Source of the DNA: Malacoraja senta
Lineage: Eukaryota
Assembly: GCA_038087875.1 (NCBI GenBank)
Contig: CM075990.1
Span: 18,416,001-18,480,000 of the forward strand
Direction of reading: 5' to 3'
DNA length: 64,000 nucleotides
Below are positions 1 to 64,000 of this stretch, one piece after another; within the stretch, counting starts at the first letter, position 1, and every line of letters begins with the position of its first letter. The position numbers and the translations under genes were made by a program. Under the pieces are notes generated by a model, which worked only from the letters and a program-made list of their open reading frames with translations, ran no database searches and was not told the origin of the DNA.

Positions 1-3000
1 TCGTCGTCGTCGTCTTCGTCGTCGTCGTCTTCGTCGTCGTCGTCTTCGTCGTCGTCTTCTTCGTCGTCGTCGTCTTCGTCGTCGTCGTCTTCGTCGTCGT
101 CGTCTTCGTCGTCGTCTTCTTCGTCGTCGTCTTCTTCGTCGTCGTCTTCTTCGTCGTCGTCTTCTTCGTCGTCGTCTTCTTCGTCGTCGTCTTCTTCGTC
201 GTCGTCTTCTTCGTCGTCGTCGTCTTCGTCGTCGTCTTCTTCGTCGTCGTCGTCTTCGTCGTCGTCTTCGTCGTCGTCCTCTTCGTCGTCGTCGCCTTCG
301 TCGTCGTCGTCTTCGTCGTCGTCTACTTCGTCGTCGTCTTCTTCGTCGTCGTCGTCTTCGTCGTCGTCGTCTTAGTCGTCGTCTTCTTCGTCGTCGTCGT
401 CTTCGTCGTCGTCGTCTTCGTCGTCGTCTTCTTCGTCGTCGTCGTCTTCGTCGTCGTCGTCTTCGTCGTCGTCTTCGTCGTCGTCATCTTCGTCGACGTC
501 TACTTCGTCGTCGTCTTCTTCGTCGTCGTCTTCTTCGTCGTCGTCTTCTTCGTCGTCGTCTTCTTCGTCGTCGTCTTCTTCGTCGACGTCTTCTTCGTCG
601 TCGTCTTCGTCGTCGTCTTCTTCTTCGTCGTCTTCTTCGTCGTCGTCTTCTTCGTCGTCGTCTTATTCGTCGTCGTCTTCTTCGTCGTCGTCTTCTTCGT
701 CGTCGTCTTCTTCGTCGTCGTCTTCTTCGTCGTCGTCTTCTTCGTCGTCGTCTTCTTCGTCGTCGTCTTCTTCGTCGTCGTCTTCTTCGTCGTCGTCTTC
801 TTCGTCGTCGTCTTCTTCTTCGTGGTCTTCTTCGTCGTCGACTTCTTCGTCGTCGTCTTCTTCGTCGTCGTCTTCGTCGTCATCGTCGTCGTCTTCGTCG
901 TCGTCGTCTTCGTCGTCGTCTTCGTCGTCGTCGTCTTCGTCGTCGTCGTCTTCGTCGTCGTCGTCTTCGTCGTCGTCGTCTTCGTCGTCGTCGTCTTCGT
1001 CGTCGTCGTCTTCGTCGTCGTCTTCTTCGTCGTCGTCTTCTTCGTCGTCGTCGTCTTCGTCGTCGTCGTCTTCGTCGTCGTCTTCTTCGTCGTCGTCGTC
1101 TTCGTCGTCGTCTTCGTCGTCGTCTTCTTCGTCGTCGTCGTCTTCGTCGTCGTCGTCTTCGTCGTCGTCTTCGTCGTAGTCGTCTTCGTCGTCGCCTTCT
1201 TCGTCGTCGTCTTCTTCGTCGTCGTCTTCTTCGTCGTCGTCTTCTTCGTCGTCGTCTTCTTCGTCGTCGTCTTCTTCGTCGTCGTCTTCTTCGTCGTCGT
1301 CTTCTTCGTCGTCGTCTTCTTCGTCGTCGTCTTCTTCGTCGTCGTCTTCTTCGTCGTCGTCTTCTTCGTCGTCGTCTTCTTCGTCGTCGTCTTCTTCGTC
1401 GTCGTCTTCTTCGTCGTCGTCTTCTTCGTCGTCGTCTTCTTCGTCGTCGTCTTCATCGTCGTTGTCTTCTTCGTCGTCTTCTTCGTCGTCGTCTTCGTCG
1501 TCGACTTCTTCGTCGTCGTCTTGTTCGTCGTCGTCTTGTTCGTCGTCGTCTTCTTCGTCGTCGTCTTCTTCGTCGTCGTCGTCTTCGTCGTCGTCGTCTT
1601 CGTCGTCGTCTTCATCGTCGTCGTCTTCTTCGTCGTCGTCTTCTTCGTCGTCGTCTTCGTCGTCGTCGTCTTCGTCGTCGTCGTCGTCGTCTTCGTCGTC
1701 GTCGTCTTCGTCGTCGTCTTCGTCGTCGTCGTCTTCGTCGTCGTCGTCTTCGTCGTCGTCGTCTTCGTCGTCGTCGTCTTCGTCGTCGTCGTCTTCGTCG
1801 TCGTCTTCTTCGTCGTCGTCTTCTTCGTCGTCGTCGTCTTCGTCGTCGTCGTCTTCGTCGTCGTCTTCTTCGTCGTCGTCTTCTTCGTCGTCGTCTTCTT
1901 CGTCGTCGTCTTCTTCGTCGTCGTCTTCTTCGTCGTCGTCTTCTTCGTCGTCGTCTTCTTCGTCGTCGTCTTCTTCGTCGTCGTCGTCTTCGTCGTCGTC
2001 TTCTTCGTCGTCGTCTTCTTCGTCGTCGTCTTCTTCGTCGTCGTCTTCTTCGTCGTCGTCTTCATCGTCATCGTCTTCTTCGTCGTCTTCTTCGTCGTCG
2101 TCTTCTTCGTCATCGACTTCTTCGTCGTCGTCTTCTTCGTCGTCGTCTTCTTCGTCGTCGTCTTCTTCGTCGTCGTCTTCTTCGTCGTCGTCGTCTTCGT
2201 CGTCGTCGTCTTCGTCGTCGTCTTCATCGTCGTCGTCTTCTTCGTCGTCGTCTTCTTCGTCGTCGTCTTCGTCGTCCTCTTCGTCGTCGTCGTCTTCGTC
2301 GTCGTCGTCTTCGTCGTCGTCGTCTTCGTCGTCGTCGTCTTCGTCGTCGTCGTCTTCGTCGTCGTCGTCTTCGTCGTCGTCGTCTTCGTCGTCGTCTTCT
2401 TCGTCGTCGTCGTCTTCGTCGTCGTCGTCTTCGTCGTCGTCGTCTTCGTCGTCGTCTTCTTCGTCGTCGTCTTCTTCGTCGTCGTCTTCTTCGTCGTCGT
2501 CTTCTTCGTCGTCGTCTTCTTCGTCGTCGTCTTCTTCGTCGTCGTCTTCTTCGTCGTCGTCGTCTTCGTCGTCGTCTTCTTCGTCGTCGTCGTCTTCGTC
2601 GTCGTCTTCGTCGTCGTCCTCTTCGTCGTCGTCGCCTTCGTCGTCGTCGTCTTCGTCGTCGTCTACTTCGTCGTCGTCTTCTTCGTCGTCGTCGTCTTCG
2701 TCGTTGTCGTCTTAGTCGTCGTCTTCTTCGTCGTCGTCGTCTTCGTCGTCGTCGTCTTCGTCGTCGTCTTCTTCGTCGTCGTCGTCTTCGTCGTCGTCGT
2801 CTTCGTCGTCGTCTTCGTCGTCGTCTTCTTCGTCGTCGTCGTCTTCGTCGTCGTCGTCTTCGTCGTCGTCTTCGTCGTCGTCATCTTCGTCGTCGTCTTC
2901 TTCGTCGTCGTCTACTTCGTCGTCGTCTTCTTCGTCGTCATCTTCTTCGTCGTCGTTTTCTTCGTCGTCGTCTTCTTCGTCGTCGTCTTCTTCGTCGTCG

Positions 3001-5500
3001 TCTTCTTCGTCGTCGTCTTCTTCGTCGTCGTCTTCTTCTTTGTCGTCTTCTTCGTCGTCGTCTTCTTCGTCGTCGTCTTCTTCGTCGTCGTCTTCTTCGT
3101 CGTCGTCTTCTTCGTCGTCGTCTTCTTCGTCGTCGTCTTCTTCGTCGTCGTCTTCTTCGTCGTCGTCTTCTTCGTCGTCGTCTTCTTCGTCGTCGTCTTC
3201 TTCGTCGTCGTCTTCTTCGTCGTCGTCTTCTTTGTCGTCGTCTTCTTCGTCTTCGTCTTCTTCGTCGTCGTCGTCTTTGTCGTCGTCGTCTTCGTCGTCA
3301 TCTTCATCGTCGTCGTCTTCTTCGTCGTCGTCTTCTTCGTCGTCGTCTTCTTCGTCGTCGTCTTCTTCGTCGTCGTCGTCTTTGTCGTCGTCTTCTTCGT
3401 CGTCGTCGTCGTCATCGTCTTCTTCGTCGTCGTTATCTTTGTCGTCGTCGTCTTCGTCGTCGTCTTCTTCGTCGTCGTCTTCTTCGTCATCTTCTTCGTC
3501 GTCGTCTTCTTCATCGTCGTCTTCTTCGTCGTCGTCTTCTTTGTCGTCCTCTTCTTCGTCGTCGTCTTCTTCGTCGTCGTCTTCTTCGTCGTCGTCTTCT
3601 TCGTCGTCGACTTCTTCGTCGTCGTCTTCTTCGTCTCGTCTTCTTCGTCGTCGTCTTCTTCGTCGTCGTCTTCTTCGTCGTCGTCTTCTTCGTCGTCGTC
3701 GTCTTCGTCGTCGTCGTCTTCGTCGTCGTCGTCATGTCGTCGTCTTCATCGTCGTCGTCTTCTTCGTCGTCGTCTTCTTCGTCGTCGTCTTCTTCGTCGT
3801 CGTCTTCTTCGTCGTCGTCTTCTTCGTCGTCGTCTTCTTCGTCGTCGTCTTCTTCGTCGTCGTCTTCTTCGTCGTCGTCGTCTTCGTCGTCGTCTTCTTC
3901 GTCGTCGTCGTCTTCGTCGTCGTCTTCGTCGTCGTCCTCTTCGTCGTCGTCGCCTTCGTCGTCGTCGTCTTCGTCGTCGTCTACTTCGTCGTCGTCTTCT
4001 TCGTCGTCGTCGTCTTCGTCGTCGTCATCTTAGTCGTCGTCTTCTTCGTCGTCGTCGTCTTCGTCGTCGTCGTCTTCGTCGTCGTCTTCTTCGTCGTCGT
4101 CGTCTTCGTCGTCGTCGTCTTCGTCGTCGTCTTCGTCGTCGTCTTCTTCGTCGTCGTCGTCTTCGTCGTCGTCGTCTCGTCGTCGTCTTCGTCGTCGTCA
4201 TCGTCATCTTCGTCGTCGTCTTCTTCGTCGTCGTCTACTTCGTCGTCGTCTTCTTCGTCGTCGTCTTCATCGTCGTCGTCTTCTTCTTCGTCGTCTTCTT
4301 CGTCGTCGTCTTCTTCGTCGTCGTCTTCTTCGTCGTCGTCTTCTTCGTCGTCGTCTTCTTCTTCGTCGTCTTCTTCGTCGTCGTCTTCTTCGTCGTCGTC
4401 TTCTTCGTCGTCGTCTTCTTCGTCGTCGTCTTCTTCGTCGTCGTCTTCTTCGTCGTCGTCTTCTTCGTCGTCGTCTTCTTCGTCGTCGTCTTCTTCGTCG
4501 TCGTCTTCTTCGTCGTCGTCTTCTTCGTCGTCGTCTTCTTCGTCGTCGTCTTCTTCGTCGTCGTCTTCTTCGTCGTCGACTTCTTCGTCGTTGTCTTCTT
4601 CGTCGTCGTCTTCTTCGTCGTCGTCTTCTTCGTCGTCGTCTTCTTCGTCGTCGTCGTCTTCGTCGTCGTCTTCTTCGTCGTCGTCGTCTTCGTCGTCGTC
4701 TTCGTCGTCGTACTCTTCGTCGTCGTCGCCTTCGTCGTCGTCGTCTTCGTCGTCGTCTACTTCGTCGTCGTCTTCTTCGTCGTCGTCGTCTTCGTCGTCG
4801 TCGTCTTAGTCGTCGTCTTCTTCGTCGTCGTCGTCTTCGTCGTCGTCGTCTTCGTCGTCGTCTTCTTCGTCGTCGTCGTCTTCGTCGTCGTCGTCTTCGT
4901 CGTCGTCTTCGTCGTCGTCTTCTTCGTCGTCGTCGTCTTCGTCGTCATCGTCTTCGTCGTCATCTTCGTCGTCGTCATCTTCGTCGTCGTCTTCTTCGTC
5001 GTCGTCTACTTCGTCGTCGTCTTCTTCGTCGTCGTCTTCTTCGTCGTCGTCTTCTTCGTCGTCGTCTTCTTCATCGTCGTCTTCTTCGTCGTCGTCTTCT
5101 TCGTCGTCGTCTTCTTCGTCGTCGTCTTCTTCGTCGTCTTCTTCGTCGTCGTCTTCTTCGTCGTCGTCTTCTTCGTCGTCGACTTCTTCGTCGTCGTCTT
5201 CTTCGTCGTCGTCTTCTTCGTCGTCGTCTTCTTCGTCGTCGTCTTCTTCGTCGTCGTCGTCTTCGTCGTCGTCTTCTTCGTCGTCGTCTTCTTCGTCGTC
5301 GTCTTCTTCGTCGTCGTCGTCTTCGTCGTCGTCGTCTTCGTCGTCGTCTTCTTCGTCGTCGTCTTCTTCGTCGTCGTCTTCTTCGTCGTCGTCTTCTTCG
5401 TCGTCGTCGTCTTCATCGTCGTCGTCTTCGTCGTCGTCTTCATCGTCGTCGTCTTCTTCGTCGTCGTCTTCTTCGTCGTCGTCTTCTTCATCGTCGTCTT
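1..5500. repeat. Satellite sub-domain, variant family Y (first block)
   Basis: Carries the TCC..CCT..ACT..TCTTAG cassette (TAG ends 375, 2715, 4033, 4809), TCGTAG..CCT (1177) and the TGT-TGT doublet (1522). Lacks GCGGCGGCT and TCAGCG. Confidence 0.7.
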
Positions 5501-8500
5501 CTTCGTCGTCGTCTCTTTGTCGTCCTCTTCTTCGTCGTCGTCTTCTTCGTCGTCGTCTTCTTCGTCGTCGTCTTCTTCGTCGTCGACTTCTTCGTCGTCG
5601 TCTTCTTCGTCGTCGTCTTCTTCGTCGTCGTCTTCTTCGTCGTCGTCTTCTTCGTCGTCATCGTCTTCGTCGTCATCGTCTTCGTCGTCGTCTTCATCGT
5701 CGTCGTCTTCTTCGTCGTCGTCTTCTTCGTCGTCGTCTTCTTCGTCGTCGTCTTCTTCGTCGTCGTCTTCTTCGTCGTCGTCTCCTTCGTCGTCGTCTTC
5801 TTCGTCGTCGTCTCCTTCGTCGTCGTCTTCTTCGTCGTCGTCTCCTTCGTCGTCGTCTTCTTCGTCGTCGTCGTCTTCGTCGTCGTCTTCTTCGTCATCG
5901 TCTACTTCGTCGTCGTCTTCTTCGTCGTCGTCTCCTTCGTCGTCGTCGTCTTCGTCGTCGTCGTCTTCGTCGTCGTCTTCTTCGTCGTCGTCGTCTTCGT
6001 CGTCGTCGTCTTCGTCAGCGTCTTCTTCGTCGTCGTCGTCTTCGTCGTCTTCGTCTTCGTCGTCGTCTTCTTCCTCGTCGTCGTCTTCGTCGGCGTCGTC
6101 TTCGTCGTCGTCTTCGTCGTCGTCTTCTTCGTCGTCGTCGTCTTCGTCGTCGTCGTCTTCGTCGTCGTCTTCTTCGTCGTCGTCGTCTTCGTCGTCGTCG
6201 TCTTCGTCGTCGTCTTCGTCATCGTCGTCTTCGTCGTCGTCTTCTTCGTCGTCGTCTTCTTCGTCGTCGTATTCTTCGTCGTCGTCTTCTTCGTCGTCGT
6301 CTTCTTCGTCGTCGTCTTCTTCGTCGTCGTCTTCTTCGTCGTCGTCTTCTTCGTCGTCGTCTTCTTCGTCGTCGTCTTCTTCGCCGTCGTCTTCTTCGCC
6401 GTCGTCTTCTTCGTCGTCGTCTTCTTCGTCGTCGTCTTCTTCGTCGTCGTCTTCTTCGTCGTCGTCTTCTTCGTCGTCTTCTTCGTCGTCGTCTCCTTCG
6501 TCGTCGTCTTCTTCGTCGTCGTCGTCTTCGTCGTCGTCTTCTTCGTCGTCGTCTCCTTCGTCGTCGTCTTCTTCGTCGTCGTCTCCTTCGTCGTCGTCGT
6601 CTTCGTCGTCGTCGTCTTCGTCGTCGTCTTCTTCGTCGTCGTCGTCTTCGTCGTCGTCGTCTTCGTCAGCGCGTCGTCTTCGTCTTCGTCGTCGTCTTCT
6701 TCCTCGTCGTCGTCTTCGTCGGCGTCGTCTTCGTCGTCGTCTTCGTCGTCGTCTTCTTCGTCGTCGTCGTCTTCGTCGTCGTCGTCTTCGTCGTCGTCTT
6801 CTTCGTCGTCGTCGTCTTCGTCGTCGTCGTCTTCGTCGTCGTCTTAGTCATCGTCGTCTTCGTCGTCGTCTTCTTCGTCGTCGTCTTCTTCGTCGTCGTA
6901 TTCTTCGTCGTCGTCTTCTTCGTCGTCGTCTTCTTTCGTCGTCGTCTTCTTCGTCGTCGTCTTCTTCGTCGTCGTCTTCTTCGTCGTCGTCTTCTTTCGT
7001 CGTCGTCGTCTTCGTCGTCGTCTTCTTCGCGTCGTCTTCTTCGTCGTCGTCTTCTTCGTCGTCGTCTTCTTCGTCGTCGTCTTCTTCGTCGTCGTCTTCT
7101 TCGTCGTCGTCTTCTTCGTCGTCGTCTTCTTCGTCGTCTTAGTCATCGTCTTCTTCGTCGTCGTCTTCTTCGTCGTCGTCTTCTTCGTCGTCGTCTTCTT
7201 CGTCGTCGTCTTCTTCGTCGTCGTCTTCTTCGTCGTCGTCTTCTTCGTCGTCGTCTTCTTCGTCGTCGTCTTCTTTCGTCGTCGTCTTCTTCGTCGTCGT
7301 CTTCTTCGTCGTCGTCTTCATCGTCGTCGTCTTCTTCGTCGTCGTCGTCTTCGTCGTCGTCGTCTTCGTCGTCGTCGTCTTCGTCGTCGTCTTCTTCGTC
7401 GTCGTCTTCGTCGTCGTCGTCTTCGTCGTCGTCTTCTTCGTCGTCGTCTTCTTCGTCGTCGTCGGCTTCGTCGTCGTCGTCTTCGTCGTCGTCTTCTTCG
7501 TCGTCGTCGTCTTCGTCGGCGGCGGCTTCGTCGTCGTCTTCGTCGTCGTCTTCTTCGTCGTCGTCTTCTTCGTCGTCGTCTTCTTCGTCGTCGTCTTGCT
7601 TCGTCGTCGTCTTCTTCGTCGTCGTCTTCTTCATCGTCATCTTCTTCGTCGTCGTCTTCTTCGTCGTCGTCTTCTTCGTCGTCGTCTTCTTCGTCGTCGT
7701 CTTCTTCGTCGTCGTCTTCTTCGTCGTCGTCTTCTTCGTCGTCTTCTTCGTCGTCGTCTTCTTCGTCGTCGTCTTCTTCTCCCCGTCGTCTTCTTCTTCG
7801 TCGTCGTCTTCTTCGTCGTCGTCTTCTTCGTCGTCGTCTTCTTCGTCGTCGACTTCTTCGTCGTCGTCTTCTTCGTCGTCGTCTTCTTCGTCGTCGTCTT
7901 CTTCGTCGTCGTCTTCTTCGTCGTCGTCGTCTTCATCGTCGTCTTCTTCGTCGTCGTCGTCTTCGTCGTCATCGTCTTCGTCGTCGTCGTCTTCGTCGTC
8001 GTCGTCTTCGTCGTCGTCTTCTTCGTCGTCGTCGTCTTTGTCGTCGTCGTCTTCGTCGTCGTCTTCTTCGTCGTCGTCGTCTTCGTCGTCGTCGACTTCG
8101 TCGTCGTCTTCTTCGTCGTTGTCTTCTTCATCGTTGTCTTCTTCGTCGTCGACTTCTTCGTCGTCGTCTTCTTCGTCGTCGTCTTCTTCGTCGTCGTCTT
8201 CTTCGTCGTCGTCTTCTTCGTCGTCATCGTCTTCGTCGTCATCGTCTTCGTCGTCGTCTTCATCGTCGTCGTCTTCTTCGTCGTCGTCTTCTTCGTCGTC
8301 GTCTTCTTCGTCGTCGTCTTCTTCGTCGTCGTCTTCTTCGTCGTCGTCTTCTTCGTCGTCGTCTTCTTCGTCGTCGTCTTCTTCGTCGTCGTCTTCTTCG
8401 TCGTCGTCTTCTTCGTCGTCGTCTTCTTCGTCGTCGTCTTCTTCGTCATCGTCGTCTTCGTCGTCATCGTCTTCGTCGTCGTCTTCATCGTCGTCGTCTT

Positions 8501-8524
8501 CTTCGTCGTCGTCTTCTTCGTCGT

Positions 8525-10846
8525 CGTCTTCTTCGTCGTCATCTTCTTCGTCGTCGTCTTCTTCGTCGTCGTCTCCTTCGTCGTCGTCTTCTTCGTCGTC
8601 GTCTCCTTCGTCGTCGTCTTCTTCATCGTCGTCTCCTTCGTCGTCGTCTTCTTCGTCGTCGTCGTCTTCGTCGTCGTCTTCTTCGTCGTCGTCTCCTTCG
8701 TCGACGTCTTCTTCGTCGTCGTCTCCTTCGTCGTCGTCGTCTTCGTCGTCGTCGTCTTCGTCGTCGTCGTCTTCGTCGTCGTCTTCTTCGTCGTCGTCGT
8801 CTTCGTCGTCGTCTTCTTCGTCGTCGTCTTCTTCGTCGTCGTCTCCTTCGTCGTCGTCGTCTTCGTCGTCGTCGTCTTCGTCGTCGTCTTCTTCGTCGTC
8901 GTCGTCTTCGTCGTCGTCGTCTTCGTCAGCGTCTTCTTCGTCGTCGTCGTCTTCGTCGTCTTCGTCTTCGTCGTTGTCTTCTTCATCGTCGTCGTCTTCG
9001 TCGGCGTCGTCTTCGTCGTCGTCTTCGTCGTCGTCTTCTTCGTCGTCGTCGTCTTCGTCGTCGTCGTCTTCATCGTCGTCTTCTTCGTCGTCGTCATCTT
9101 CGTCGTCGTCGTCTTCGTCGTCGTCGTCTTCGTCGTCGTCTTCGTCGTCGTCGTCTTCGTCGTCGTCTTCTTCGTCGTCGTCTTCTTCGTCGTCGTATTC
9201 TTCGTCGTCGTCTTCTTCGTCGTCGTCTTCTTCGTCGTCGTCTTCTTCGTCGTCGTCTTCTTCGTCGTCGTCTTCTTCGTCGTCGTCTTCTTCGTCGTCG
9301 TCTTCTTCGTCGTCGTCTTCTTCGTCGTCGTCTTCTTCGTCGTCGTCTTCTTCGTCGTCGTCTTCTTCGTCGTCGTCTTCTTCGTCGTCGTCGTCTTCGT
9401 CGTCGTCTTCTTCGTCGTCGTCTTCTTCGTCGTCGTCTTCTTCGTCGTCGTCTTCTTCGTCGTCGTCTTGTTCGTCGTCGTCTTCCTCGTCGTCGTCTTC
9501 TTCATCGTCATCTTCTTCGTCGTCGTCTTCTTCATCGTCGTCTTCTTCGTCGTCGTCTTCTTCGTCGTCGTCTTCTTCGTCGTCGTCTTCTTCGTCGTCG
9601 TCTTCTTCGTCGTCATCTTCGTCGTCGTCTTCTTCGTCGTCGTCTTATTCGTCGTCTTCTTCTTCGTCGTCGTCTTCTTCGTCGTCGTCTTCTTCGTCGT
9701 CATCTTCTTCGTCGTCGTCTTCTTCGTCGTCGTCTCCTTCGTCGTCGTCTTCTTCGTCGTCGTCTCCTTCGTCGTCGTCTTCTTCATCGTCGTCTCCTTC
9801 GTCGTCGTCTTCTTCGTCGTCGTCGTCTTCGTCGTCGTCTTCTTCGTCGTCGTCTCCTTCGTCGACGTCTTCTTCGTCGTCGTCTCCTTCGTCGTCGTCG
9901 TCTTCGTCGTCGTCGTCTTCGTCGTCGTCGTCTTCGTCGTCGTCTTCTTCGTCGTCGTCGTCTTCGTCGTCGTCTTCTTCGTCGTCGTCTTCTTCGTCGT
10001 CGTCTCCTTCGTCGTCGTCGTCTTCGTCGTCGTCGTCTTCGTCGTCGTCTTCTTCGTCGTCGTCGTCTTCGTCGTCGTCGTCTTCGTCAGCGTCTTCTTC
10101 GTCGTCGTCGTCTTCGTCGTCTTCGTCTTCGTCGTTGTCTTCTTCATCGTCGTCGTCTTCGTCGGCGTCGTCTTCGTCGTCGTCTTCGTCGTCGTCTTCT
10201 TCGTCGTCGTCGTCTTCGTCGTCGTCGTCTTCATCGTCGTCTTCTTCGTCGTCGTCATCTTCGTCGTCGTCGTCTTCGTCGTCGTCGTCTTCGTCGTCGT
10301 CTTCGTCGTCGTCGTCTTCGTCGTCGTCTTCTTCGTCGTCGTCTTCTTCGTCGTCGTATTCTTCGTCGTCGTCTTCTTCGTCGTCGTCTTCTTCGTCGTC
10401 GTCTTCTTCGTCGTCGTCTTCTTCGTCGTCGTCTTCTTCGTCGTCGTCTTCTTCGTCGTCGTCTTCTTCGTCGTCGTCTTCTTCGTCGTCGTCTTCTTCG
10501 TCGTCGTCTTCTTCGTCGTCGTCTTCTTCGTCGTCGTCTTCTTCGTCGTCGTCGTCTTCGTCGTCGTCTTCTTCGTCGTCGTCTTCTTCGTCGTCGTCTT
10601 CTTCGTCGTCGTCTTCTTCGTCGTCGTCTTGTTCGTCGTCGTCTTCCTCGTCGTCGTCTTCTTCATCGTCATCTTCTTCGTCGTCGTCTTCTTCATCGTC
10701 GTCTTCTTCGTCGTCGTCTTCTTCGTCGTCGTCTTCTTCGTCGTCGTCTTCTTCGTCGTCGTCTTCTTCGTCGTCATCTTCGTCGTCGTCTTCTTCGTCG
10801 TCGTCTTATTCGTCGTCTTCTTCTTCGTCGTCGTCTTCTTCGTCGT
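8525..10846. repeat. Tandem duplication, 1161-bp unit
   Basis: Marker pairs 8929/10090 (GCG), 9196/10357 (TAT) and 9646/10807 (TAT) are all offset by 1161. Confidence 0.9.
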
Positions 10847-51100: not shown

Positions 51101-54100
51101 TCGTCGTCGTCTTCTTCGTCGTCGTCTTCTTCGTCGTCGTCTTCTTCGTCGTCGTCTTCTTCGTCGTCGTCTTCTTCGTCGTCGTCTTCTTCGTCGTCGT
51201 CTTCTTCGTCGTCGTCTTCTTCGTCGTCGTCTTCTTCGTCGTCGTCTTCTTCGTCGTCGTCTTCTTCGTCGTCGTCTTCTTCATCGTCGTCTTCATCGTC
51301 GTTGTCTTCTTCGTCGTCTTCTTCGTCGTCGTCTTCTTCGTCGTCGACTTCTTCGTCGTCGTCTTGTTCGTCGTCGTCTTGTTCGTCGTCGTCTTCTTCG
51401 TCGTCGTCTTCTTCGTCGTCGTCGTCTTCGTCGTCGTCGTCTTCGTCGTCGTCTTCATCGTCGTCGTCTTCTTCGTCGACGTCTTCTTCGTCGTCGTCTT
51501 CGTCGTCGTCGTCTTCGTCGTCGTCGTCTTCGTCGTCGTCGTCGTCGTCTTCGTCGTCGTCGTCTTCGTCGTCGTCTTCGTCGTCGTCGTCTTCGTCGTC
51601 GTCGTCTTCGTCGTCGTCTTCGTCGTCGTCGTCTTCGTCGTCGTCGTCTTCGTCGTCGTCTTCTTCGTCGTCGTCTTCTTCGTCGTCGTCGTCTTCATCG
51701 TCGTCGTCTTCGTCGTCATCTTCTTCGTCGTCGTCTTCTTCGTCGTCGTCTTCTTCGTCGTCGTCTTCTTCGTCGTCGTCTTCTTCGTCGTCGTCTTCTT
51801 CGTCGTCGTCTTCTTCGTCGTCGTCGTCTTCGTCGTCGTCTTCTTCGTCGTCGTCTTCTTCGTCGTCGTCTTCTTCGTCGTCGTCTTCTTCGTCGTCGTC
51901 TTCATCGTCATCGTCTTCTTCGTCGTCTTCTTCGTCGTCGTCTTCTTCGTCGTCGACTTCTTCGTCGTCGTCTTCTTCGTCGTCGTCTTCTTCGTCGTCG
52001 TCTTCTTCGTCGTCGTCTTCTTCGTCGTCGTCGTCTTCGTCGTCATCGTCTTCGTCGTCGTCTTCATCGTCGTCGTCTTCTTCGTCGTCGTCTTCTTCGT
52101 CGTCGTCTTCGTCGTCATCTTCGTCGTCGTCGTCTTCGTCGTCGTCGTCTTCGTCGTCGTCGTCTTCGTCGTCGTCGTCTTCGTCGTCGTCGTCTTCGTC
52201 GTCGTCGTCTTCGTCGTCGTCGTCTTCGTCGTCGTCTTCTTCGTCGTCGTCGTCTTCGTCGTCGTCGTCTTCGTCGTCGTCGTCTTCGTCGTCGTCTTCT
52301 TCGTCGTCGTCTTCTTCGTCGTCGTCTTCTTCGTCGTCGTCTTCTTCGTCGTCGTCTTCTTCGTCGTCGTCTTCTTCGTCGTCGTCTTCTTCGTCGTCGT
52401 CTTCTTCGTCGTCGTCGTCTTCGTCGTCGTCTTCTTCGTCGTCGTCGTCTTCGTCGTCGTCTTCGTCGTCGTCCTCTTCGTCGTCGTCCTCTTCGTCGTC
52501 GTCCTCTTCGTCGTCGTCACCTTCGTCGTCGTCGTCTTCGTCGTCGTCGTCTTCGTCGTCGTCTTCTTCGTCGTCGTCGTCTTCGTCGTCGTCGTCTTTG
52601 TCGTCGTCTTCTTCGTCGTCGTCGTCTTCGTCGTCGTCGTCTTCGTCGTCGTCTTCTTCGTCGTCGTCGTCTTCGTCGTCGTCTTCGTCGTTGTCTTCGT
52701 CGTCGTCTTCTTCGTCGTCGTCGTCTTCGTCGTCGTCTTCGTCGTCGTCGTCTTCGTCGTCGTCTTCGTCGTTGTCTTCTTCGTCGTCGTCTACTTCGTC
52801 GTCGTCTTCTTCGTCGTCGTCTTCTTCGTCGTCGTCTTCTTCGTCGTCGTCTTCTTCGTCGTCGTCTTCTTCGTCGACGTCTTCTTCGTCGTCGTCTTCG
52901 TCGTCGTCTTCTTCTTCGTCGTCTTCTTCGTCGTCGTCTTCTTCGTCGTCGTCTTATTCGTCGTCGTCTTCTTCGTCGTCGTCTTCTTCGTCGTCGTCTT
53001 CTTCGTCGTCGTCTTCTTCGTCGTCGTCTTCTTCGTCGTCGTCTTCTTCGTCGTCGTCTTCTTCGTCGTCGTCTTCTTCGTCGTCGACTTCTTCGTCGTC
53101 GTCTTCTTCGTCGTCGTCTTCTTCGTCGTCGTCTTCTTCGTCGTCGTCTTCTTCGTCGTCGTCGTCTTCGTCGTCGTCGTCTTCGTCGTCAACTTCATCG
53201 TCGTCGTCTTCTTCGTCGTCGTCTTCTTCGTCGTCGTCTTCTTCGTCGTCGTCTTCTTCGTCGTCGTCGTCTTTGTCGTCGTCTTCTTCGTCGTCGTCGT
53301 CGTCGTCATCTTCTTCGTCGTCGTTTTCTTTGTCGTCGTCGTCTTCGTCGTCTTCTTCTTCGTCGTCGTCTTCTTCGTCGTCGTCTTCTTCGTCGTCGTC
53401 TTCTTCATCGGCGTCGTCTTCGTCGTCGTCTTCGTCGTCGTCTTCGTCATCGTTGTCTTCGTCGTCGTCGTCTTTGTCGTCGTCTTCTTCGTCGTCGTCG
53501 TCTTCGTCGTCGTCGTCTTCGTCGTCGTCTTCTTCGTCGTCGTCGTCTTCGTCGTAGTCGTCTTCGTCGTCGTCTTCTTCGTCGTCGTCGACTTCGTCAT
53601 CGTCTTCGTCGTCGTCTTCTTCGTCGTCGTCGTCTTCGTCGTCGTCGTCTTCGTCGTCGTCTTCGTCGTAGTCGTCTTCGTCGTCGCCTTCTTCGTCGTC
53701 GTCTTCTTCGTCGTCGTCTTCTTCGTCGTCGTCTTCTTCGTCGTCGTCTTCTTCGTCGTCGTCTTCTTCGTCGTCGTCTTCTTCGTCGTCGTCTTCTTCG
53801 TCGTCGTCTTCTTCGTCGTCGTCTTCTTCGTCGTCGTCTTCTTCGTCGTCGTCTTCTTCGTCGTCGTCTTCTTCGTCGTCGTCTTCTTCGTCGTCGTCTT
53901 CTTCGTCGTCGTCTTCTTCGTCGTCGTCTTCATCGTCGTTGTCTTCTTCGTCGTCTTCTTCGTCGTCGTCTTCTTCGTCGTCGACTTCTTCGTCGTCGTC
54001 TTGTTCGTCGTCGTCTTGTTCGTCGTCGTCTTCTTCGTCGTCGTCTTCTTCGTCGTCGTCGTCTTCGTCGTCGTCGTCTTCGTCGTCGTCTTCATCGTCG

Positions 54101-57100
54101 TCGTCTTCTTCGTCATCGTCTTCTTCGTCGTCGTCTTCGTCGTCGTCGTCTTCGTCGTCGTCGTCTTCGTCGTCGTCGTCGTCGTCTTCGTCGTCGTCGT
54201 CTTCGTCGTCGTCTTCGTCGTCGTCGTCTTCGTCGTCGTCGTCTTCGTCGTCGTCATCTTCGTCGTCGTCGTCTTCGTCGTCGTCGTCTTCGTCGTCGTC
54301 TTCTTCGTCGTCGTCTTCTTCGTCGTCGTCGTCTTCGTCGTCGTCGTCTTCGTCGTCGTCTTCTTCGTCGTCGTCTTCTTCGTCGTCGTCTTCTTCGTCG
54401 TCGTCTTCTTCGTCGTCGTCTTCTTCGTCGTCGTCTTCTTCGTCGTCGTCTTCTTCGTCGTCGTCTTCTTCGTCGTCGTCTTCTTCGTCGTCGTCGTCTT
54501 CGTCGTCGTCTTCTTCGTCGTCGTCTTCTTCGTCGTCGTCTTCTTCGTCGTCCTCTTCTTCGTCGTCGTCTTCATCGTCGTCGTCTTCTTCGTCGTCTTC
54601 TTCGTCGTCGTCTTCTTCGTCGTCGACTTCTTCGTCGTCGTCTTCTTCGTCGTCGTCTTCTTCGTCGTCGTCTTCTTCGTCGTCGTCTTCTTCGTCGTCG
54701 TCGTCTTTGTCGTCGTCGTCTTCGTCGTCGTCTTCATCGTCGTCGTCTTCTTCGTCGTCGTCTTCTTCGTCGTCGTCTTCGTCGTCATCTTCGTCGTCGT
54801 CGTCTTCGTCGTCGTCGTCTTCGTCGTCGTCGTCTTCGTCGTCGTCGTCTTCGTCGTCGTCGTCTTCGTCGTCGTCGTCTTCGTCGTCGTCTTCTTCGTC
54901 GTCGTCGTCTTCGTCGTCGTCGTCTTCGTCGTCGTCGTCTTCGTCGTCGTCTTCTTCGTCGTCGTCTTCTTCGTCGTCGTCTTCTTCGTCGTCGTCTTCT
55001 TCGTCGTCGTCTTCTTCGTCGTCGTCTTCTTCGTCGTCGTCTTCTTCGTCGTCGTCTTCTTCGTCGTCGTCGTCTTCGTCGTCGTCTTCTTCGTCGTCGT
55101 CGTCTTCGTCGTCGTCTTCGTCGTCGTCCTCTTCGTCGTCGTCGCCTTCGTCGTCGTCTTCTTCGTCGTCGTCTTCTTCGTCGTCGTCTTCTTCGTCGTC
55201 GTCTTCTTCGTCGTCGTCGTCTTCGTCGTCGTCGTCTTCGTCGTCAACTTCATCGTCGTCGTCTTCTTCGTCGTCGTCTTCTTCGTCGTCGTCTTCTTCT
55301 TCGTCGTCGTCTTCTTCGTCGTCATCGTCTTTGTCGTCGTCTTCTTCGTCGTCGTCGTCGTCGTCATCTTCTTCGTCGTCGTTTTCTTTGTCGTCGTCGT
55401 CTTCGTCGTCTTCTTCTTCGTCGTCGTCTTCTTCGTCGTCGTCTTCTTCGTCGTCGTCTTCTTCATCGGCGTCGTCTTCGTCGTCGTCTTCGTCGTCGTC
55501 TTCGTCGTCGTTGTCTTCGTCGTCGTCGTCTTCGTCGTCGTCTTCTTCGTCGTCGTCGTCTTCGTCGTCGTCGTCTTCGTCGTCGTCTTCTTCGTCGTCG
55601 TCGTCTTCGTCGTAGTCGTCTTCGTCGTCGTCTTCTTCGTCGTCGTCGTCTTCGTCATCGTCTTCGTCGTCGTCTTCTTCGTCGTCGTCGTCTTCGTCGT
55701 CGTCGTCTTCGTCGTCGTCTTCGTCGTAGTCGTCTTCGTCGTCGCCTTCTTCGTCGTCGTCTTCTTCGTCGTCGTCTTCTTCGTCGTCGTCTTCTTCGTC
55801 GTCGTCTTCTTCGTCGTCGTCTTCTTCGTCGTCGTCTTCTTCGTCGTCGTCTTCTTCGTCGTCGTCTTCTTCGTCGTCGTCTTCTTCGTCGTCGTCTTCT
55901 TCGTCGTCGTCTTCTTCGTCGTCGTCTTCTTCGTCGTCGTCTTCTTCGTCGTCGTCTTCTTCGTCGTCGTCTTCTTCGTCGTCGTCTTCATCGTCGTCGT
56001 CTTCTTCGTCGTCTTCTTCGTCGTCGTCTTCTTCGTCGTCGACTTCTTCGTCGTCGTCTTGTTCGTCGTCGTCTTGTTCGTCGTCGTCTTCTTCGTCGTC
56101 GTCTTCTTCGTCGTCGTCGTCTTCGTCGTCGTCGTCTTCGTCGTCGTCTTCATCGTCGTCGTCTTCTTCGTCATCGTCTTCTTCGTCGTCGTCTTCGTCG
56201 TCGTCGTCTTCGTCGTCGTCGTCTTCGTCGTCGTCGTCGTCGTCTTCGTCGTCGTCGTCTTCGTCGTCGTCTTCGTCGTCGTCGTCTTCGTCGTCGTCGT
56301 CTTCGTCGTCGTCGTCTTCGTCGTCGTCGTCTTCGTCGTCGTCGTCTTCGTCGTCGTCGTCTTCGTCGTCGTCTTCTTCGTCGTCGTCTTCTTCGTCGTC
56401 GTCGTCTTCGTCGTCGTCGTCTTCGTCGTCGTCTTCTTCGTCGTCGTCTTCTTCGTCGTCGTCTTCTTCGTCGTCGTCTTCTTCGTCGTCGTCTTCTTCG
56501 TCGTCGTCTTCTTCGTCGTCGTCTTCTTCGTCGTCGTCTTCTTCGTCGTCGTCGTCTTCGTCGTCGTCTTCTTCGTCGTCGTCTTCTTCGTCGTCGTCTT
56601 CTTCGTCGTCGTCTTCTTCGTCGTCGTCTTCATCGTCGTCGTCTTCTTCGTCGTCTTCTTCGTCGTCGTCTTCTTCGTCGTCGACTTCTTCGTCGTCGTC
56701 TTCTTCGTCGTCGTCTTCTTCGTCGTCGTCTTCTTCGTCGTCGTCTTCTTCGTCGTCGTCGTCTTCGTCGTCGTCGTCTTCGTCGTCGTCTTCATCGTCG
56801 TCGTCTTCTTCGTCGTCGTCTTCTTCGTCATCGTCTTCGTCGTCATCTTCGTCGTCGTCGTCTTCGTCGTCGTCGTCTTCGTCGTCGTCGTCTTCGTCAT
56901 CGTCGTCTTCGTCGTCGTCGTCGTCGTCTTCGTCGTCGTCGTCTTCGTCGTCGTCTTCGTCGTCGTCGTCTTCGTCGTCGTCGTCTTCGTCGTCGTCATC
57001 TTCGTCGTCGTCGTCTTCGTCGTCGTCGTCTTCGTCGTCGTCTTCTTCGTCGTCGTCTTCTTCGTCGTCGTCGTCTTCGTCGTCGTCGTCTTCGTCGTCG

Positions 57101-60100
57101 TCTTCTTCGTCGTCGTCTTCTTCGTCGTCGTCTTCTTCGTCGTCGTCTTCTTCGTCGTCGTCTTCTTCGTCGTCGTCTTCTTCGTCGTCGTCTTCTTCGT
57201 CGTCGTCTTCTTCGTCGTCGTCTTCTTCGTCGTCGTCGTCTTCGTCGTCGTCTTCTTCGTCGTCGTCTTCTTCGTCGTCGTCTTCTTCGTCGTCGTCTTC
57301 TTCGTCGTCGTCTTCATCGTCGTCGTCTTCTTCGTCGTCTTCTTCGTCGTCGTCTTCTTCGTCGTCGACTTCTTCGTCGTCGTCTTCTTCGTCGTCGTCT
57401 TCTTCGTCGTCGTCTTCTTCGTCGTCGTCTTCTTCGTCGTCGTCGTCTTCGTCGTCGTCGTCTTCGTCGTCGTCTTCATCGTCGTCGTCTTCTTCGTCGT
57501 CGTCTTCTTCGTCGTCGTCTTCGTCGTCATCTTCGTCGTCGTCGTCTTCGTCGTCGTCGTCTTCGTCGTCGTCGTCTTCGTCGTCGTCGTCTTCGTCGTC
57601 GTCGTCTTCGTCGTCGTCGTCTTCGTCGTCGTCTTCTTCGTCGTCGTCGTCTTCGTCGTCGTCGTCTTCGTCGTCGTCGTCTTCGTCGTCGTCTTCTTCG
57701 TCGTCGTCTTCTTCGTCGTCGTCTTCTTCGTCGTCGTCTTCTTCGTCGTCGTCTTCTTCGTCGTCGTCTTCTTCGTCGTCGTCTTCTTCGTCGTCGTCTT
57801 CTTCGTCGTCGTCGTCTTCGTCGTCGTCTTCTTCGTCGTCGTCGTCTTCGTCGTCGTCCTCTCGTCGTCGTCGCCTTCGTCGTCGTCTTCTTCGTCGTCG
57901 TCTTCTTCGTCGTCGTCTTCTTCGTCGTCGTCTTCTTCGTCGTCGTCGTCTTCGTCGTCGTCGTCTTCGTCGTCAACTTCATCGTCGTCGTCTTCTTCGT
58001 CGTCGTCTTCTTCGTCGTCGTCTTCTTCGTCGTCGTCTTCTTCGTCGTCATCGTCTTTGTCGTCGTCTTCTTCGTCGTCGTCGTCGTCGTCATCTTCTTC
58101 GTCGTCGTTTTCTTTGTCGTCGTCGTCTTCGTCGTCTTCTTCTTCGTCGTCGTCTTCTTCGTCGTCGTCTTCTTCGTCGTCGTCTTCTTCATCGGCGTCG
58201 TCTTCGTCGTCGTCTTCGTCGTCGTCTTCGTCGTCGTTGTCTTCGTCGTCGTCGTCTTCGTCGTCGTCTTCTTCGTCGTCGTCGTCTTCGTCGTCGTCGT
58301 CTTCGTCGTCGTCTTCTTCGTCGTCGTCGTCTTCGTCGTAGTCGTCTTCGTCGTCGTCTTCTTCGTCGTCGTCGTCTTCGTCATCGTCTTCGTCGTCGTC
58401 TTCTTCGTCGTCGTCGTCTTCGTCGTCGTCGTCTTCGTCGTCGTCTTCGTCGTAGTCGTCTTCGTCGTCGCCTTCTTCGTCGTCGTCTTCTTCGTCGTCG
58501 TCTTCTTCGTCGTCGTCTTCTTCGTCGTCGTCTTCTTCGTCGTCGTCTTCTTCGTCGTCGTCTTCTTCGTCGTCGTCTTCTTCGTCGTCGTCTTCTTCGT
58601 CGTCGTCTTCTTCGTCGTCGTCTTCTTCGTCGTCGTCTTCTTCGTCGTCGTCTTCTTCGTCGTCGTCTTCTTCGTCGTCGTCTTCTTCGTCGTCGTCTTC
58701 TTCGTCGTCGTCTTCATCGTCGTTGTCTTCTTCGTCGTCTTCTTCGTCGTCGTCTTCTTCGTCGTCGACTTCTTCGTCGTCGTCTTGTTCGTCGTCGTCT
58801 TGTTCGTCGTCGTCTTCTTCGTCGTCGTCTTCTTCGTCGTCGTCGTCTTCGTCGTCGTCGTCTTCGTCGTCGTCTTCATCGTCGTCGTCTTCTTCGTCGT
58901 CGTCTTCTTCGTCGTCGTCTTCGTCGTCGTCGTCTTCGTCGTCGTCGTCTTCGTCGTCGTCGTCGTCGTCTTCGTCGTCGTCGTCTTCGTCGTCGTCTTC
59001 GTCGTCGTCGTCTTCGTCGTCGTCGTCTTCGTCGTCGTCGTCTTCGTCGTCGTCGTCTTCGTCGTCGTCGTCTTCGTCGTCGTCGTCTTCGTCGTCGTCT
59101 TCTTCGTCGTCGTCTTCTTCGTCGTCGTCGTCTTCGTCGTCGTCGTCTTCGTCGTCGTCTTCTTCGTCGTCGTCTTCTTCGTCGTCGTCTTCTTCGTCGT
59201 CGTCTTCTTCGTCGTCGTCTTCTTCGTCGTCGTCTTCTTCGTCGTCGTCTTCTTCGTCGTCGTCTTCTTCGTCGTCGTCTTCTTCGTCGTCGTCGTCTTC
59301 GTCGTCGTCTTCTTCGTCGTCGTCTTCTTCGTCGTCGTCTTCTTCGTCGTCGTCTTCTTCGTCGTCGTCTTCATCGTCGTCGTCTTCTTCGTCGTCTTCT
59401 TCGTCGTCGTCTTCTTCGTCGTCGACTTCTTCGTCGTCGTCTTCTTCGTCGTCGTCTTCTTCGTCGTCGTCTTCTTCGTCGTCGTCTTCTTCGTCGTCGT
59501 CGTCTTCGTCGTCGTCGTCTTCGTCGTCGTCTTCATCGTCGTCGTCTTCTTCGTCGTCGTCTTCTTCGTCATCGTCTTCGTCGTCATCTTCGTCGTCGTC
59601 GTCTTCGTCGTCGTCGTCTTCGTCGTCGTCGTCTTCGTCGTCGTCGTCTTCGTCGTCGTCGTCTTCGTCGTCGTCGTCTTCGTCGTCGTCTTCTTCGTCG
59701 TCGTCGTCTTCGTCGTCGTCGTCTTCGTCGTCGTCGTCTTCGTCGTCGTCTTCTTCGTCGTCGTCTTCTTCGTCGTCGTCTTCTTCGTCGTCGTCTTCTT
59801 CGTCGTCGTCTTCTTCGTCGTCGTCTTCTTCGTCGTCGTCTTCTTCGTCGTCGTCTTCTTCGTCGTCGTCGTCTTCGTCGTCGTCTTCTTCGTCGTCGTC
59901 GTCTTCGTCGTCGTCTTCGTCGTCGTCCTCTTCGTCGTCGTCGCCTTCGTCGTCGTCGTCTTCGTCGTCGTCTACTTCGTCGTCGTCTTCTTCGTCGTCG
60001 TCTTCGTCGTCGTCGTCTTAGTCGTCGTCTTCTTCGTCGTCGTCGTCTTCGTCGTCGTCGTCTTCGTCGTCGTCTTCTTCGTCGTCGTCGTCTTCGTCGT

Positions 60101-63100
60101 CGTCGTCTTCGTCGTCGTCTTCGTCGTCGTCTTCTTCGTCGGCGTCGTCTTCGTCGTCATCGTCTTCGTCGTCGTCTTCGTCGTCGTCATCTTCGTCGTC
60201 GTCTTCTTCGTCGTCGTCTACTTCGTCGTCGTCTTCTTCGTCGTCGTCTTCTTCGTCGTCGTTTTCTTCGTCATCGTCTTCTTTGTCGTCGTCTTCTTCG
60301 TCGTCGTCTTCTTCGTCGTCGTCTTCTTCGACGTCGTCTTCTTCTTCGTCGTCTTCTTCGTCGTTGTCTTCTTCGTCGTCGTCTTCTTCGTCGTCGTCTT
60401 CTTCGTCGTCGTCTTCTTCGTCGTCGTCTTCTTCGTCGTCGTCTTCTTCGTCGTCGTCTTCTTCGTCGTCGTCTTCTTCGTCGTCGTCTTCTTCGTCGTC
60501 GTCTTCTTCGTCGTCGTCTTCTTCGTCGTCGACTTCTTCGTCGTCGTCTTCTTCGTCGTCGACTTCTTCGTCGTCGTCTTCTTCGTCGTCGTCTTCTTCG
60601 TCGTCGTCTTCTTCGTCTTCGTCTTCTTCGTCGTCGTCGTCTTCGTCGTCGTCGTCTTCGTCGTCATCTTCATCGTCGTCGTCTTCTTCGTCGTCGTCTT
60701 CTTCGTCGTCGTCTTCTTCGTCGTCGTCTTCTTTGTCGTCGTCTTCTTCGTCGTCGTCGTCGTCGTCGTCTTCTTCGTCGTCGTCGTCTTCTTCGTCGTC
60801 GTCGTCTTTGTCGTCGTCGTCTTCGTCGTCGTCTTCTTCGTCGTCGTCTTCTTCGTCGTCGTCTTCTTCGTCGTCGTCTTCTTCATCGTCGTCTTCTTCG
60901 TCGTCGTCTTCTTTGTCGTCCTCTTCTTCGTCGTCGTCTTCTTCGTCGTCGTCTTCTTCGTCGTTGTCTTCTTCGTCGTCGACTTCTTCGTCGTCGTCTT
61001 CTTCGTCGTCGTCTTCTTCGTCGTCGTCTTCTTCGTCGTCGTCTTCTTCGTCGTCATCGTCTTCGTCGTCGTCGTCTTCGTCGTCGTCTTCATCGTCGTC
61101 GTCTTCTTCGTCGTCGTCTTCTTCGTCGTCGTCTTCTTCGTCGTCGTCGTCTTCGTCGTCGTCGTCTTCGTCGTCAACTTCATCGTCGTCGTCTTCTTCG
61201 TCGTCGTCTTCTTCGTCGTCGTCTTCTTCGTCGTCGTCTTCTTCGTCGTCGTCGTCTTTGTCGTCGTCTTCTTCGTCGTCGTCGTCGTCGTCATCTTCTT
61301 CGTCGTCGTTTTCTTTGTCGTCGTCGTCTTCGTCGTCTTCTTCTTCGTCGTCGTCTTCTTCGTCGTCGTCTTCTTCGTCGTCGTCTTCTTCATCGGCGTC
61401 GTCTTCGTCGTCGTCTTCGTCGTCGTCTTCGTCGTCGTCGTCTTCGTCGTCGTCGTCTTCGTCGTCGTCTTCTTCGTCGTCGTCGTCTTCATCGTCGTCG
61501 TCTTCGTCGTCGTCTTCTTCGTCGTCGTCGTCTTCGTCGTAGTCGTCTTCGTCGTCGTCTTCTTCGTCGTCGTCGTCTTCGTCATCGTCTTCGTCGTCGT
61601 CTTCTTCGTCGTCGTCGTCTTCGTCGTCGTCGTCTTCGTCGTCGTCTTCGTCGTAGTCGTCTTCGTCGTCGCCTTCTTCGTCGTCGTCTTCTTCGTCGTC
61701 GTCTTCTTCGTCGTCGTCTTCTTCGTCGTCGTCTTCTTCGTCGTCGTCTTCTTCGTCGTCGTCTTCTTCGTCGTCGTCTTCTTCGTCGTCGTCTTCTTCG
61801 TCGTCGTCTTCTTCGTCGTCGTCTTCTTCGTCGTCGTCTTCTTCGTCGTCGTCTTCTTCGTCGTCGTCTTCTTCGTCGTCGTCTTCTTCGTCGTCGTCTT
61901 CTTCGTCGTCGTCTTCATCGTCGTTGTCTTCTTCGTCGTCTTCTTCGTCGTCGTCTTCTTCGTCGTCGACTTCTTCGTCGTCGTCTTGTTCGTCGTCGTC
62001 TTGTTCGTCGTCGTCTTCTTCGTCGTCGTCTTCTTCGTCGTCGTCGTCTTCGTCGTCGTCGTCTTCGTCGTCGTCTTCATCATCGTCGTCTTCTTCGTCA
62101 TCGTCTTCTTCGTCGTCGTCTTCGTCGTCGTCGTCTTCGTCGTCGTCGTCTTCGTCGTCGTCGTCGTCATCTTCGTCGTCGTCGTCTTCGTCGTCGTCTT
62201 CGTCGTCGTCGTCTTCGTCGTCGTCGTCTTCGTCGTCGTCGTCTTCGTCGTCGTCGTCTTCGTCGTCGTCTTCTTCGTCGTCGTCTTCTTCGTCGTCGTC
62301 GTCTTCGTCGTCGTCGTCTTCGTCGTCGTCTTCTTCGTCGTCGTCTTCTTCGTCGTCGTCTTCTTCGTCGTCGTCTTCTTCGTCGTCGTCTTCTTCGTCG
62401 TCGTCTTCTTCGTCGTCGTCTTCTTCGTCGTCGTCTTCTTCGTCGTCGTCTTCTTCGTCGTCGTCGTCTTCGTCGTCGTCTTCTTCGTCGTCGTCTTCTT
62501 CGTCGTCGTCTTCTTCGTCGTCGTCTTCTTCGTCGTCGTCTTCATCGTCATCGTCTTCTTCGTCGTCTTCTTCGTCGTCGTCTTCTTCGTCGTCGACTTC
62601 TTCGTCGTCGTCTTCTTCGTCGTCGTCTTCTTCGTCGTCGTCTTCTTCGTCGTCGTCTTCTTCGTCGTCGTCGTCTTCGTCGTCGTCGTCTTCGTCGTCG
62701 TCTTCATCGTCGTCGTCTTCTTCGTCGTCGTCTTCTTCGTCGTCGTCTTCGTCGTCATCTTCGTCATCGTCGTCTTCGTCGTCGTCGTCTTCGTCGTCGT
62801 CGTCTTCGTCGTCGTCGTCTTCGTCGTCGTCGTCTTCGTCGTCGTCGTCTTCGTCGTCGTCTTCTTCGTCGTCGTCGTCTTCGTCGTCGTCGTCTTCGTC
62901 GTCGTCGTCTTCGTCATCGTCTTCTTCGTCGTCGTCTTCTTCGTCGTCGTCTTCTTCGTCGTCGTCTTCTTCGTCGTCGTCTTCTTCGTCGTCGTCTTCT
63001 TCGTCGTCGTCTTCTTCGTCGTCGTCTTCTTCGTCGTCGTCGTCTTCGTCGTCGTCTTCTTCGTCGTCGTCGTCTTCGTCGTCGTCTTCGTCGTCGTCCT

Positions 63101-64000
63101 CTTCGTCGTCGTCGCCTTCGTCGTCGTCGTCTTCGTCGTCGTCTACTTCGTCGTCGTCTTCTTCGTCGTCGTCGTCTTCGTCGTCGTCGTCTTAGTCGTC
63201 GTCTTCTTCGTCGTCGTCGTCTTCGTCGTCGTCGTCTTCGTCGTCGTCTTCTTCGTCGTCGTCGTCTTCGTCGTCGTCGTCTTCGTCGTCGTCTTCGTCG
63301 TCGTCTTCTTCGTCGTCGTCGTCTTCGTCGTCATCGTCTTCGTCGTCGTCTTCGTCGTCGTCATCTTCGTCGTCGTCTTCTTCGTCGTCGTCTACTTCGT
63401 CGTCGTCTTCTTCGTCGTCATCTTCTTCGTCGTCGTTTTCTTCGTCGTCGTCTTCTTCGTCGTCGTCTACTTCGTCGTCGTCTTCTTCGTCGTCATCTTC
63501 TTCGTCGTCGTTTTCTTCGTCGTCGTCTTCTTTGTCGTCGTCTTCTTCGTCGTCGTCTTCTTCGTCGTCGTCTTCTTCGACGTCGTCTTCTTCTTCGTCG
63601 TCTTCTTCGTCGTTGTCTTCCTCGTCGTCGTCTTCTTCGTCGTCGTCTTCTTCGTCGTCGTCTTCTTCGTCGTCGTCTTCTTCGTCATCGTCTTCTTCGT
63701 CGTCGTCTTCTTCGTCGTCGTCTTCTTCGTCGTCGTCTTCTTCGTCGTCGTCTTCTTCGTCGTCGTCTTTTTCGTCGTCGTCTTCTTCGTCGTCGTCTTC
63801 TTCGTCGTCGACTTCTTCGTCGTCGTCTTCTTCGTCGTCGTCTTCTTCGTCGTTGTCTTCTTCGTCTTCGTCTTCTTCGTCGTCGTCGTCTTCGTCGTCG
63901 TCGTCTTCGTCGTCATCTTCATCGTCGTCGTCTTCTTCGTCGTCGTCTTCTTCGTCGTCGTCTTCTTCGTCGTCGTCTTCTTCGTCGTCGTCGTCTTTGT
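51000..64000. repeat. Satellite sub-domain, variant family Y (third block), 2.1-3.2 kb higher-order units
   Basis: TGT-TGT doublets at ~51365, 54002, 56060, 58786 and 61987. Private markers are TCATCGGCG, GTTTTCTTTG and a second TCGTAG (ends 53557, 55615, 58341, 61542). Confidence 0.75.

Follow-up and report, generated by a model that had tools for sequence, protein, structure and literature searches.

A 64-kb CpG-rich array of a 15-bp GAC/GAA satellite with layered duplications and a spectrum of CpG decay

Results

A 15-bp satellite fills the window

The DNA analysed here, a stretch of 64 kb referred to as the window, consists of a single tandem repeat. TRF places it at 1-63997 with a period of 15, 4311 copies and 92% matches, and the array continues past both window ends (Table 1). 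The window contains 28,251 T, 21,289 C, 13,813 G and 647 A. Among its 21,321 in-phase triplets, 13,419 are TCG and 6,783 are TCT, giving 20,202 canonical triplets, which on the minus strand read as GAC (the majority triplet) and GAA (32%). Even the lowest-scoring window of 10 triplets retains 5 canonical ones. CpG dinucleotides number 13,527 (O/E 2.94), equivalent to 3.17 per 15 bp, and 42% of the bases of the array fall in CpG. Neither an inverted copy nor foreign DNA or a transposon insertion was found within the 64-kb window, and an Rfam search of the array returned no match at gathering score. The array is confirmed as a real satellite block filling the whole window.

An earlier sequence-only reading had described an unbroken (GAC)/(GAA) array with 3-4 CpG per 15 bp. 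Its extent, unit and CpG density are all borne out, with the amendment that GAC and GAA belong to the minus strand. Its further statement that the array has no insertions is true of foreign DNA but not of single bases, as we count 22 single-base phase shifts. Twenty of these are grouped at 3636-7780, 19953-22232 and 46241-47603, the 24-base context is unique in the window for 18 of the 22, and the shift is confined to one copy in each of five columns that align 3 to 10 copies. Because of this clustering and unique context, the phase shifts are probably consensus errors, and the three clusters patches of low consensus quality.

Table 1 Coordinates of the satellite array, its internal domains and duplications, and of short runs of the same unit in metagenome contigs
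Feature	Coordinates	Strand	Evidence or remarks
Satellite array, 15-bp monomers (GAC)3(GAA)2 and (GAC)4(GAA)	1..63997	minus	Monomer and triplet counts, TRF
Stretch with 11 of the 22 single-base phase shifts; probably lower consensus quality	3636..7780	.	Phase-shift positions
Sub-family Y domain (approximate limits)	1..5000	.	Marker motifs per kb
Sub-family X domain, first copy, limits approximate; higher marker load, at 5.8% of triplets	5001..22000	.	
Sub-family Y domain (approximate limits); marker load 4.6%	22001..35500	.	
Sub-family X domain, second copy (approximate limits); marker load 6.3%	35501..50600	.	
Sub-family Y domain (approximate limits); marker load 4.8%	50601..64000	.	
Head-to-tail super-duplication of ~30 kb	277..59976	.	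Collinear chain, 22 anchored segments, 11,268 bp aligned
Very recent tandem duplication	8539..10809	.	1.1 kb, offset 1161, zero mismatches between anchors
Recent tandem duplication	9736..15456	.	2.7 kb aligned, offset 2988, 6 triplet mismatches; contains the 959-bp exact repeat
Recent tandem duplication	29102..32010	.	1.4 kb, offset 1496, 2 triplet mismatches
Recent tandem duplication	37627..40806	.	1.5 kb, offset 1689, 5 triplet mismatches
Duplication	41794..49762	.	2.2 kb, offset 5812, 10 triplet mismatches
Short run of the 15-bp unit, metagenome contig L001	3601-3696		Stop-free 847 codons
Short run of the 15-bp unit, metagenome contig L002	41-115		Stop-free 118 codons
Short run of the 15-bp unit, metagenome contig L003	1307-1390		Stop-free 179 codons

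The array is amplified in 15-bp units

The array can be divided into 4308 monomers, of which 2512 (58%) are (GAC)3(GAA)2 and 1172 (27%) are (GAC)4(GAA), two forms that differ by a single base; a 12-bp form occurs 332 times. By length, 3706 monomers (86%) measure 15 bp and 387 measure 12 bp. Independent run lengths would give an expected 15-bp share of 52%, whereas the observed GAC and GAA runs are coupled and sum to five triplets. The main monomer variants occur in clusters rather than scattered: runs of at least eight a-type monomers occur 109 times, whereas no more than 39 were seen in any of 200 shuffles. Because the register is conserved and the variants are clustered, the 15-mer is the unit of amplification. 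The description as a compound microsatellite, offered in the sequence-only reading, requires pure runs that vary independently and is ruled out by the conserved register and by longest pure runs of (TCG)7 and (TCT)3; the term fits the origin of the array, not its present behaviour.

The alternation of a-rich and b-rich stretches has broad spectral power at 530-990 bp, and monomer autocorrelation peaks at 41-45 monomers and is close to 0 at lags 10-12. Beneath the kilobase blocks described below there may be an older unit of about 650 bp.

Duplications are layered at several scales

About 5% of triplets bear a marker substitution, by which paralogs can be traced. Our own marker-anchored, ungapped alignment in this low-complexity DNA yielded 211 segments, and 77% of triplets lie inside an anchored paralogous segment. 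Diagnostic marker motifs, binned per kb, distinguish two sub-families in the alternating order Y-X-Y-X-Y. A collinear chain maps 277-33210 onto 31114-59976 at an offset of 26.5-30.8 kb, and both sides of this ~30-kb duplication were remodelled afterwards. Nested inside it are local copies of 0.7-6 kb. Between chained paralogs, 12 of 23 indels are multiples of five triplets. This multi-level structure is absent from the sequence-only reading.

The pooled divergence between paralogs is 0.58% (45 segments of at least 600 bp), ranging from 0.39% at offsets under 3.5 kb to 0.83% at 28-33 kb (60 differences in 7,254 bp, 8 segments of at least 600 bp). At a grass-like substitution rate near 1e-8 per site per year, which may not be that of the host, the duplications would be at most a few hundred thousand years old, and younger still in view of the hypermutability of CpG. 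The longest exact repeat in the window is 959 bp, none reaching 1 kb, and 97% of 1-kb words are unique in the window.

Folding of the array DNA predicts weak GAC hairpins (30-base repeat, z -2.7 to -4.1) whose centroids are largely open; these would be compatible with slippage but are not evidence for it.

Substitutions are dominated by CpG transitions

The mutation spectrum was drawn from 3,501 aligned columns containing a canonical triplet; the 4,976 triplets without a paralog and exchanges between the two canonical triplets were excluded, and event counts are approximate. CpG transitions make up 95 of 127 substitution events (75%), against 14.8% expected under uniform substitution. Per site, 2.0% of CpG positions underwent a transition, compared with 8 non-CpG transitions in 5,845 sites (odds ratio 15, p=8e-25). 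The excess is not sequencing error, since it persists among events common to at least two copies (44 of 58), outside indel-rich stretches (88 of 115) and where carriers lie more than 10 kb apart (21 of 27). Because CpG transitions run at about 15 times the rate of non-CpG transitions, the array is most likely CpG-methylated. The large heterochromatic satellite proposed in the sequence-only reading stands as a satellite, given an array of tens of kb with a conserved monomer, and its heterochromatic part gains indirect support from this spectrum.

The changed C lies in an ACG context 70 times and in a TCG context 25 times (2.8:1, p=4e-6). This order agrees with the available excerpt of PMC11564873, in which unrepaired 5mC deamination follows ACG > CCG > GCG > TCG in MBD4-deficient human cells; the cited order is that of human cells, and the 70:25 asymmetry could be due to the strand as well as to the context.

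The array contains 370-491 decayed CpGs and 13,419 intact ones, a decayed share of about 3%, and we infer that the CpG richness is due to the youth and repeated recopying of the array. Among 83 columns of at least four copies in which the marker is in the majority, 11 contain a single canonical copy. Six of these 11 canonical singletons are nested among the carriers, together with younger markers common to a subset of carriers, a pattern that indicates exchange between copies or marker erasure.

It is also conceivable, but in our judgement distinctly improbable, that CpG density is actively kept beyond what youth provides, through GC-biased conversion or through selection for a platform for methyl-CpG or protein binding. 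In its favour, 9 of the 11 canonical singletons lie in TCA or TTG columns, which account for 43 of the 83 at risk, and CpG transitions are under-represented among fixed markers, at no more than 35 of the 86 marker columns fixed in all aligned copies, versus 75% of polymorphic events. However, the singleton counts are small, and the same pattern would arise where young CpG columns have kept their ancestral state and where old markers are split over several columns, as may happen in an ungapped paralog alignment. The low share at fixed markers could be explained by biased erasure or by column splitting. This low share runs against a simple clock.

The array is non-coding

One minus-strand frame of the array reads as Asp and Glu, and the commonest variant is synonymous in it. 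From 35170 to 46240 this frame runs for 11 kb, or 3,690 codons, without stops or phase breaks, and short arrays of the unit also lie in open frames rich in D/E on three metagenome contigs. These features could be taken to mark a giant poly-Asp/Glu exon of EEDDD repeats on the minus strand, in which synonymous selection produces the excess of GAC>GAT, a reading to which we give next to no credence. The frame has no Met codon and 26 stops in 11 columns, and in 4 of these 11 the stop was copied by duplication, with 10, 3, 3 and 3 copies. Moreover, the non-synonymous CpG transition is also elevated, 7-fold (p=2e-7), while non-CpG synonymous changes are not in excess (1/1172 versus 4/3501, both small numbers). 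On the stops and substitutions in this frame, the coding reading is largely refuted and the array is non-coding. Gene finders could nevertheless predict a spurious giant acidic protein at 35170-46240, a stretch without Met.

Sequences matching the array occur in other datasets

The part of the window at 5600-15500 (9.9 of 64 kb) was compared with public sequencing runs by means of 212 sampled words, with 24 runs listed. Fourteen non-RNA runs, from 9 studies and 8 organism labels, contain 0.43-0.76 of these words. Among distinct 31-mers of this part, 9.7% are marker-free, 54% carry one marker and 36% carry two or more. Because marker-free words are so few, shares of 0.43-0.62 require many marker-bearing words, as a large array of the same satellite supplies, if the sampled words are representative. 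Two runs at 0.72-0.76 probably contain some two-marker words as well; they may derive from the source organism and would then not be independent. Apparently, the 15-bp satellite is present in several organisms. Six RNA runs contain 0.12-0.15 of the words, close to the marker-free share, and we therefore take them to say nothing about expression or habitat.

A query of four consecutive monomers (60 bases) found no match in prokaryote genome contigs and none in viral contigs. Its three matches in metagenome contigs are all runs of 75-96 bp in D/E-rich open frames; we rejected them as relatives of the satellite, regarding them as short, unrelated acidic-frame look-alikes.

We consider it very unlikely that the array is an assembly artefact, in which a short repeat was inflated or mis-tiled by the assembler and sequencing errors appear as variants. 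Consensus quality is indeed uneven, with phase shifts that are clustered and mostly private, and modified bases can give base-calling errors at CpG. Yet the longest exact repeat stays below 1 kb and nearly all 1-kb words are unique, 27 events are derived variants shared by copies more than 10 kb apart, and marker-bearing words of the array are present in runs from several studies. The order and number of blocks in the assembly could still be partly wrong.

Discussion

Our preferred explanation, with a probability of roughly three in four, is that a eukaryote with a large genome carries the array as a CpG-methylated, non-coding satellite of its heterochromatin, a passive block kept by turnover. 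The host may be a plant such as a Triticeae grass, a conjecture to which we give about even odds. As the conserved register shows, the 15-bp unit arose from a GAC/GAA trinucleotide repeat and then became what is amplified. At the smallest scale of turnover, one or a few monomers would be gained or lost by slippage; at larger scales, turnover would proceed by tandem duplications of kilobase size and at least one of ~30 kb. The structure of these duplications is observed directly, and unequal exchange or break-induced replication may have caused them. The observed spectrum suggests deamination of methyl-CpG about 15 times faster than other transitions, and the decay of only ~3% of CpGs suggests that the array is young and that its copies overwrite each other. 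Its role is most likely passive, within silenced chromatin, probably as a pericentromeric or interstitial band, and turnover rather than selection on the sequence would keep it in place.

Several known satellites resemble the array in part. The AAGAC and AAGAG simple satellites of Drosophila form very long arrays of 5-bp units with a purine-rich strand, in a genome largely without CpG methylation. The array shares with them a short monomer, a purine-rich strand and great length, but it differs in its 15-bp unit and in its strong CpG-transition signature. Since its CpGs are largely unmethylated, the fly invoked in the sequence-only reading is a poor fit as a model of the host. The Triticeae GAA-satellite represented by the barley clone pHvG38 is composed of (GAA)m(GAG)n. 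It has in common with the array a polypurine/polypyrimidine strand asymmetry and GAA-containing units; identity was rejected on the minority share of GAA triplets and on a best (GAA)10 match with 4 mismatches in 30. The clone is named in the consulted part of PMC6288319.

Further parallels come from trinucleotide arrays of the Triticeae, as described in excerpts of the papers cited here. In barley, AAC, AAG, ACT and ATC arrays exceed 20 kb, the longest measuring 153 kb in one ONT read, and AAC and AAG are most abundant in pericentric regions (PMC9241371). Such arrays resemble ours in being trinucleotide-derived, tens of kb long and in having an AAG component, but ACG is absent from the barley motifs given in that excerpt, whereas our array has a period of 15 bp and GAA runs of at most three. 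On wheat chromosomes, FISH with (ACG)n produces strong signals (PMC7809806), and (ACG)n co-maps pericentromerically with AAG in tetraploid Agropyron cristatum (PMC5646661). Flow karyotyping of Aegilops comosa uses (GAA)7 and (ACG)5 (PMC8240756), and (ACG)n and (GAA)n are named as probes in PMC4263106. Large ACG-rich blocks are thus already known cytologically in Triticeae, and the generalization in the sequence-only reading that ACG arrays are rare and short fails there on FISH evidence (PMC7809806, PMC5240503, PMC5646661, each in part).

In silico, the array contains 47 perfect (ACG)5 sites and 4,978 within one mismatch, and no perfect (ACG)10 site but 2,286 within two mismatches. With so many near-perfect sites, an (ACG)5 probe could light up the array. 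The Triticeae (ACG)n clusters also form large ACG-rich blocks in heterochromatin, sometimes together with AAG; in the excerpts cited, those clusters are known by probe signals without target sequence, and the comparison with the array is in silico only. In full-text literature, with most subscription journals, supplements and repeat databases outside the search, six rotations of the 15-mer retrieved no description of the repeat, nor is the 15-bp repeat described in the parts consulted of PMC12771760, PMC9621091, PMC11687632, PMC13393857, PMC11655362, PMC13513846 and PMC13668677. The array behaves as a heterochromatic simple-sequence satellite would, and for now it contributes one more family to a well-known class.

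A functional centromeric satellite, carrying CENH3/CENP-A and with layered duplications reflecting centromere-type turnover, seems unlikely to us. The array is young, free of insertions and has higher-order structure; in the excerpts available, (ACG)10 labels mainly the centromeres of Hordeum bogdanii (PMC5240503) and barley has a centromeric satellite with the short unit AGAGGG (PMC9241371). Set against this are three arguments, each of them weak: spectral power at 140-200 bp is lacking (mean 596 versus 894 in neighbouring bands), no centromeric retrotransposon is found in the 64 kb, and the long trinucleotide arrays of barley are mostly pericentric in the same excerpt of PMC9241371. The array shows no nucleosome-length monomer and no peak at 140-200 bp, features that are typical of centromeric satellites but not obligatory. 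Its higher-order structure, consisting of irregular kilobase blocks and the ~30-kb duplication, is of a kind also found in non-centromeric satellites.

A wider proposal, which we hold to be doubtful, is that the array belongs to an undescribed multi-species satellite family behind ACG-positive (peri)centromeric FISH bands, a family that hosts CENH3 or keeps its extreme methyl-CpG density by a conversion that removes decayed CpGs preferentially. If that were true, the array, with its high proportion of bases in CpG, would be a natural gauge of deamination against homogenization.

Long trinucleotide-type arrays, whose inner structure is rarely described, count among the chief gaps still left in large plant assemblies; in barley, 58 of 147 assembly gaps lie close to pericentromeric AAG, according to the excerpt of PMC9241371. 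The window illustrates that a block of this kind can be a genuine 15-bp satellite duplicated at three levels and, because its kilobase words are unique, that long reads can be placed within it. As every CpG stands in the same two contexts, the array offers a clean readout of methyl-CpG decay, of its asymmetry between contexts and of its balance with recopying. The array would matter more if it proved to be centromeric or to have biased upkeep of its CpGs.
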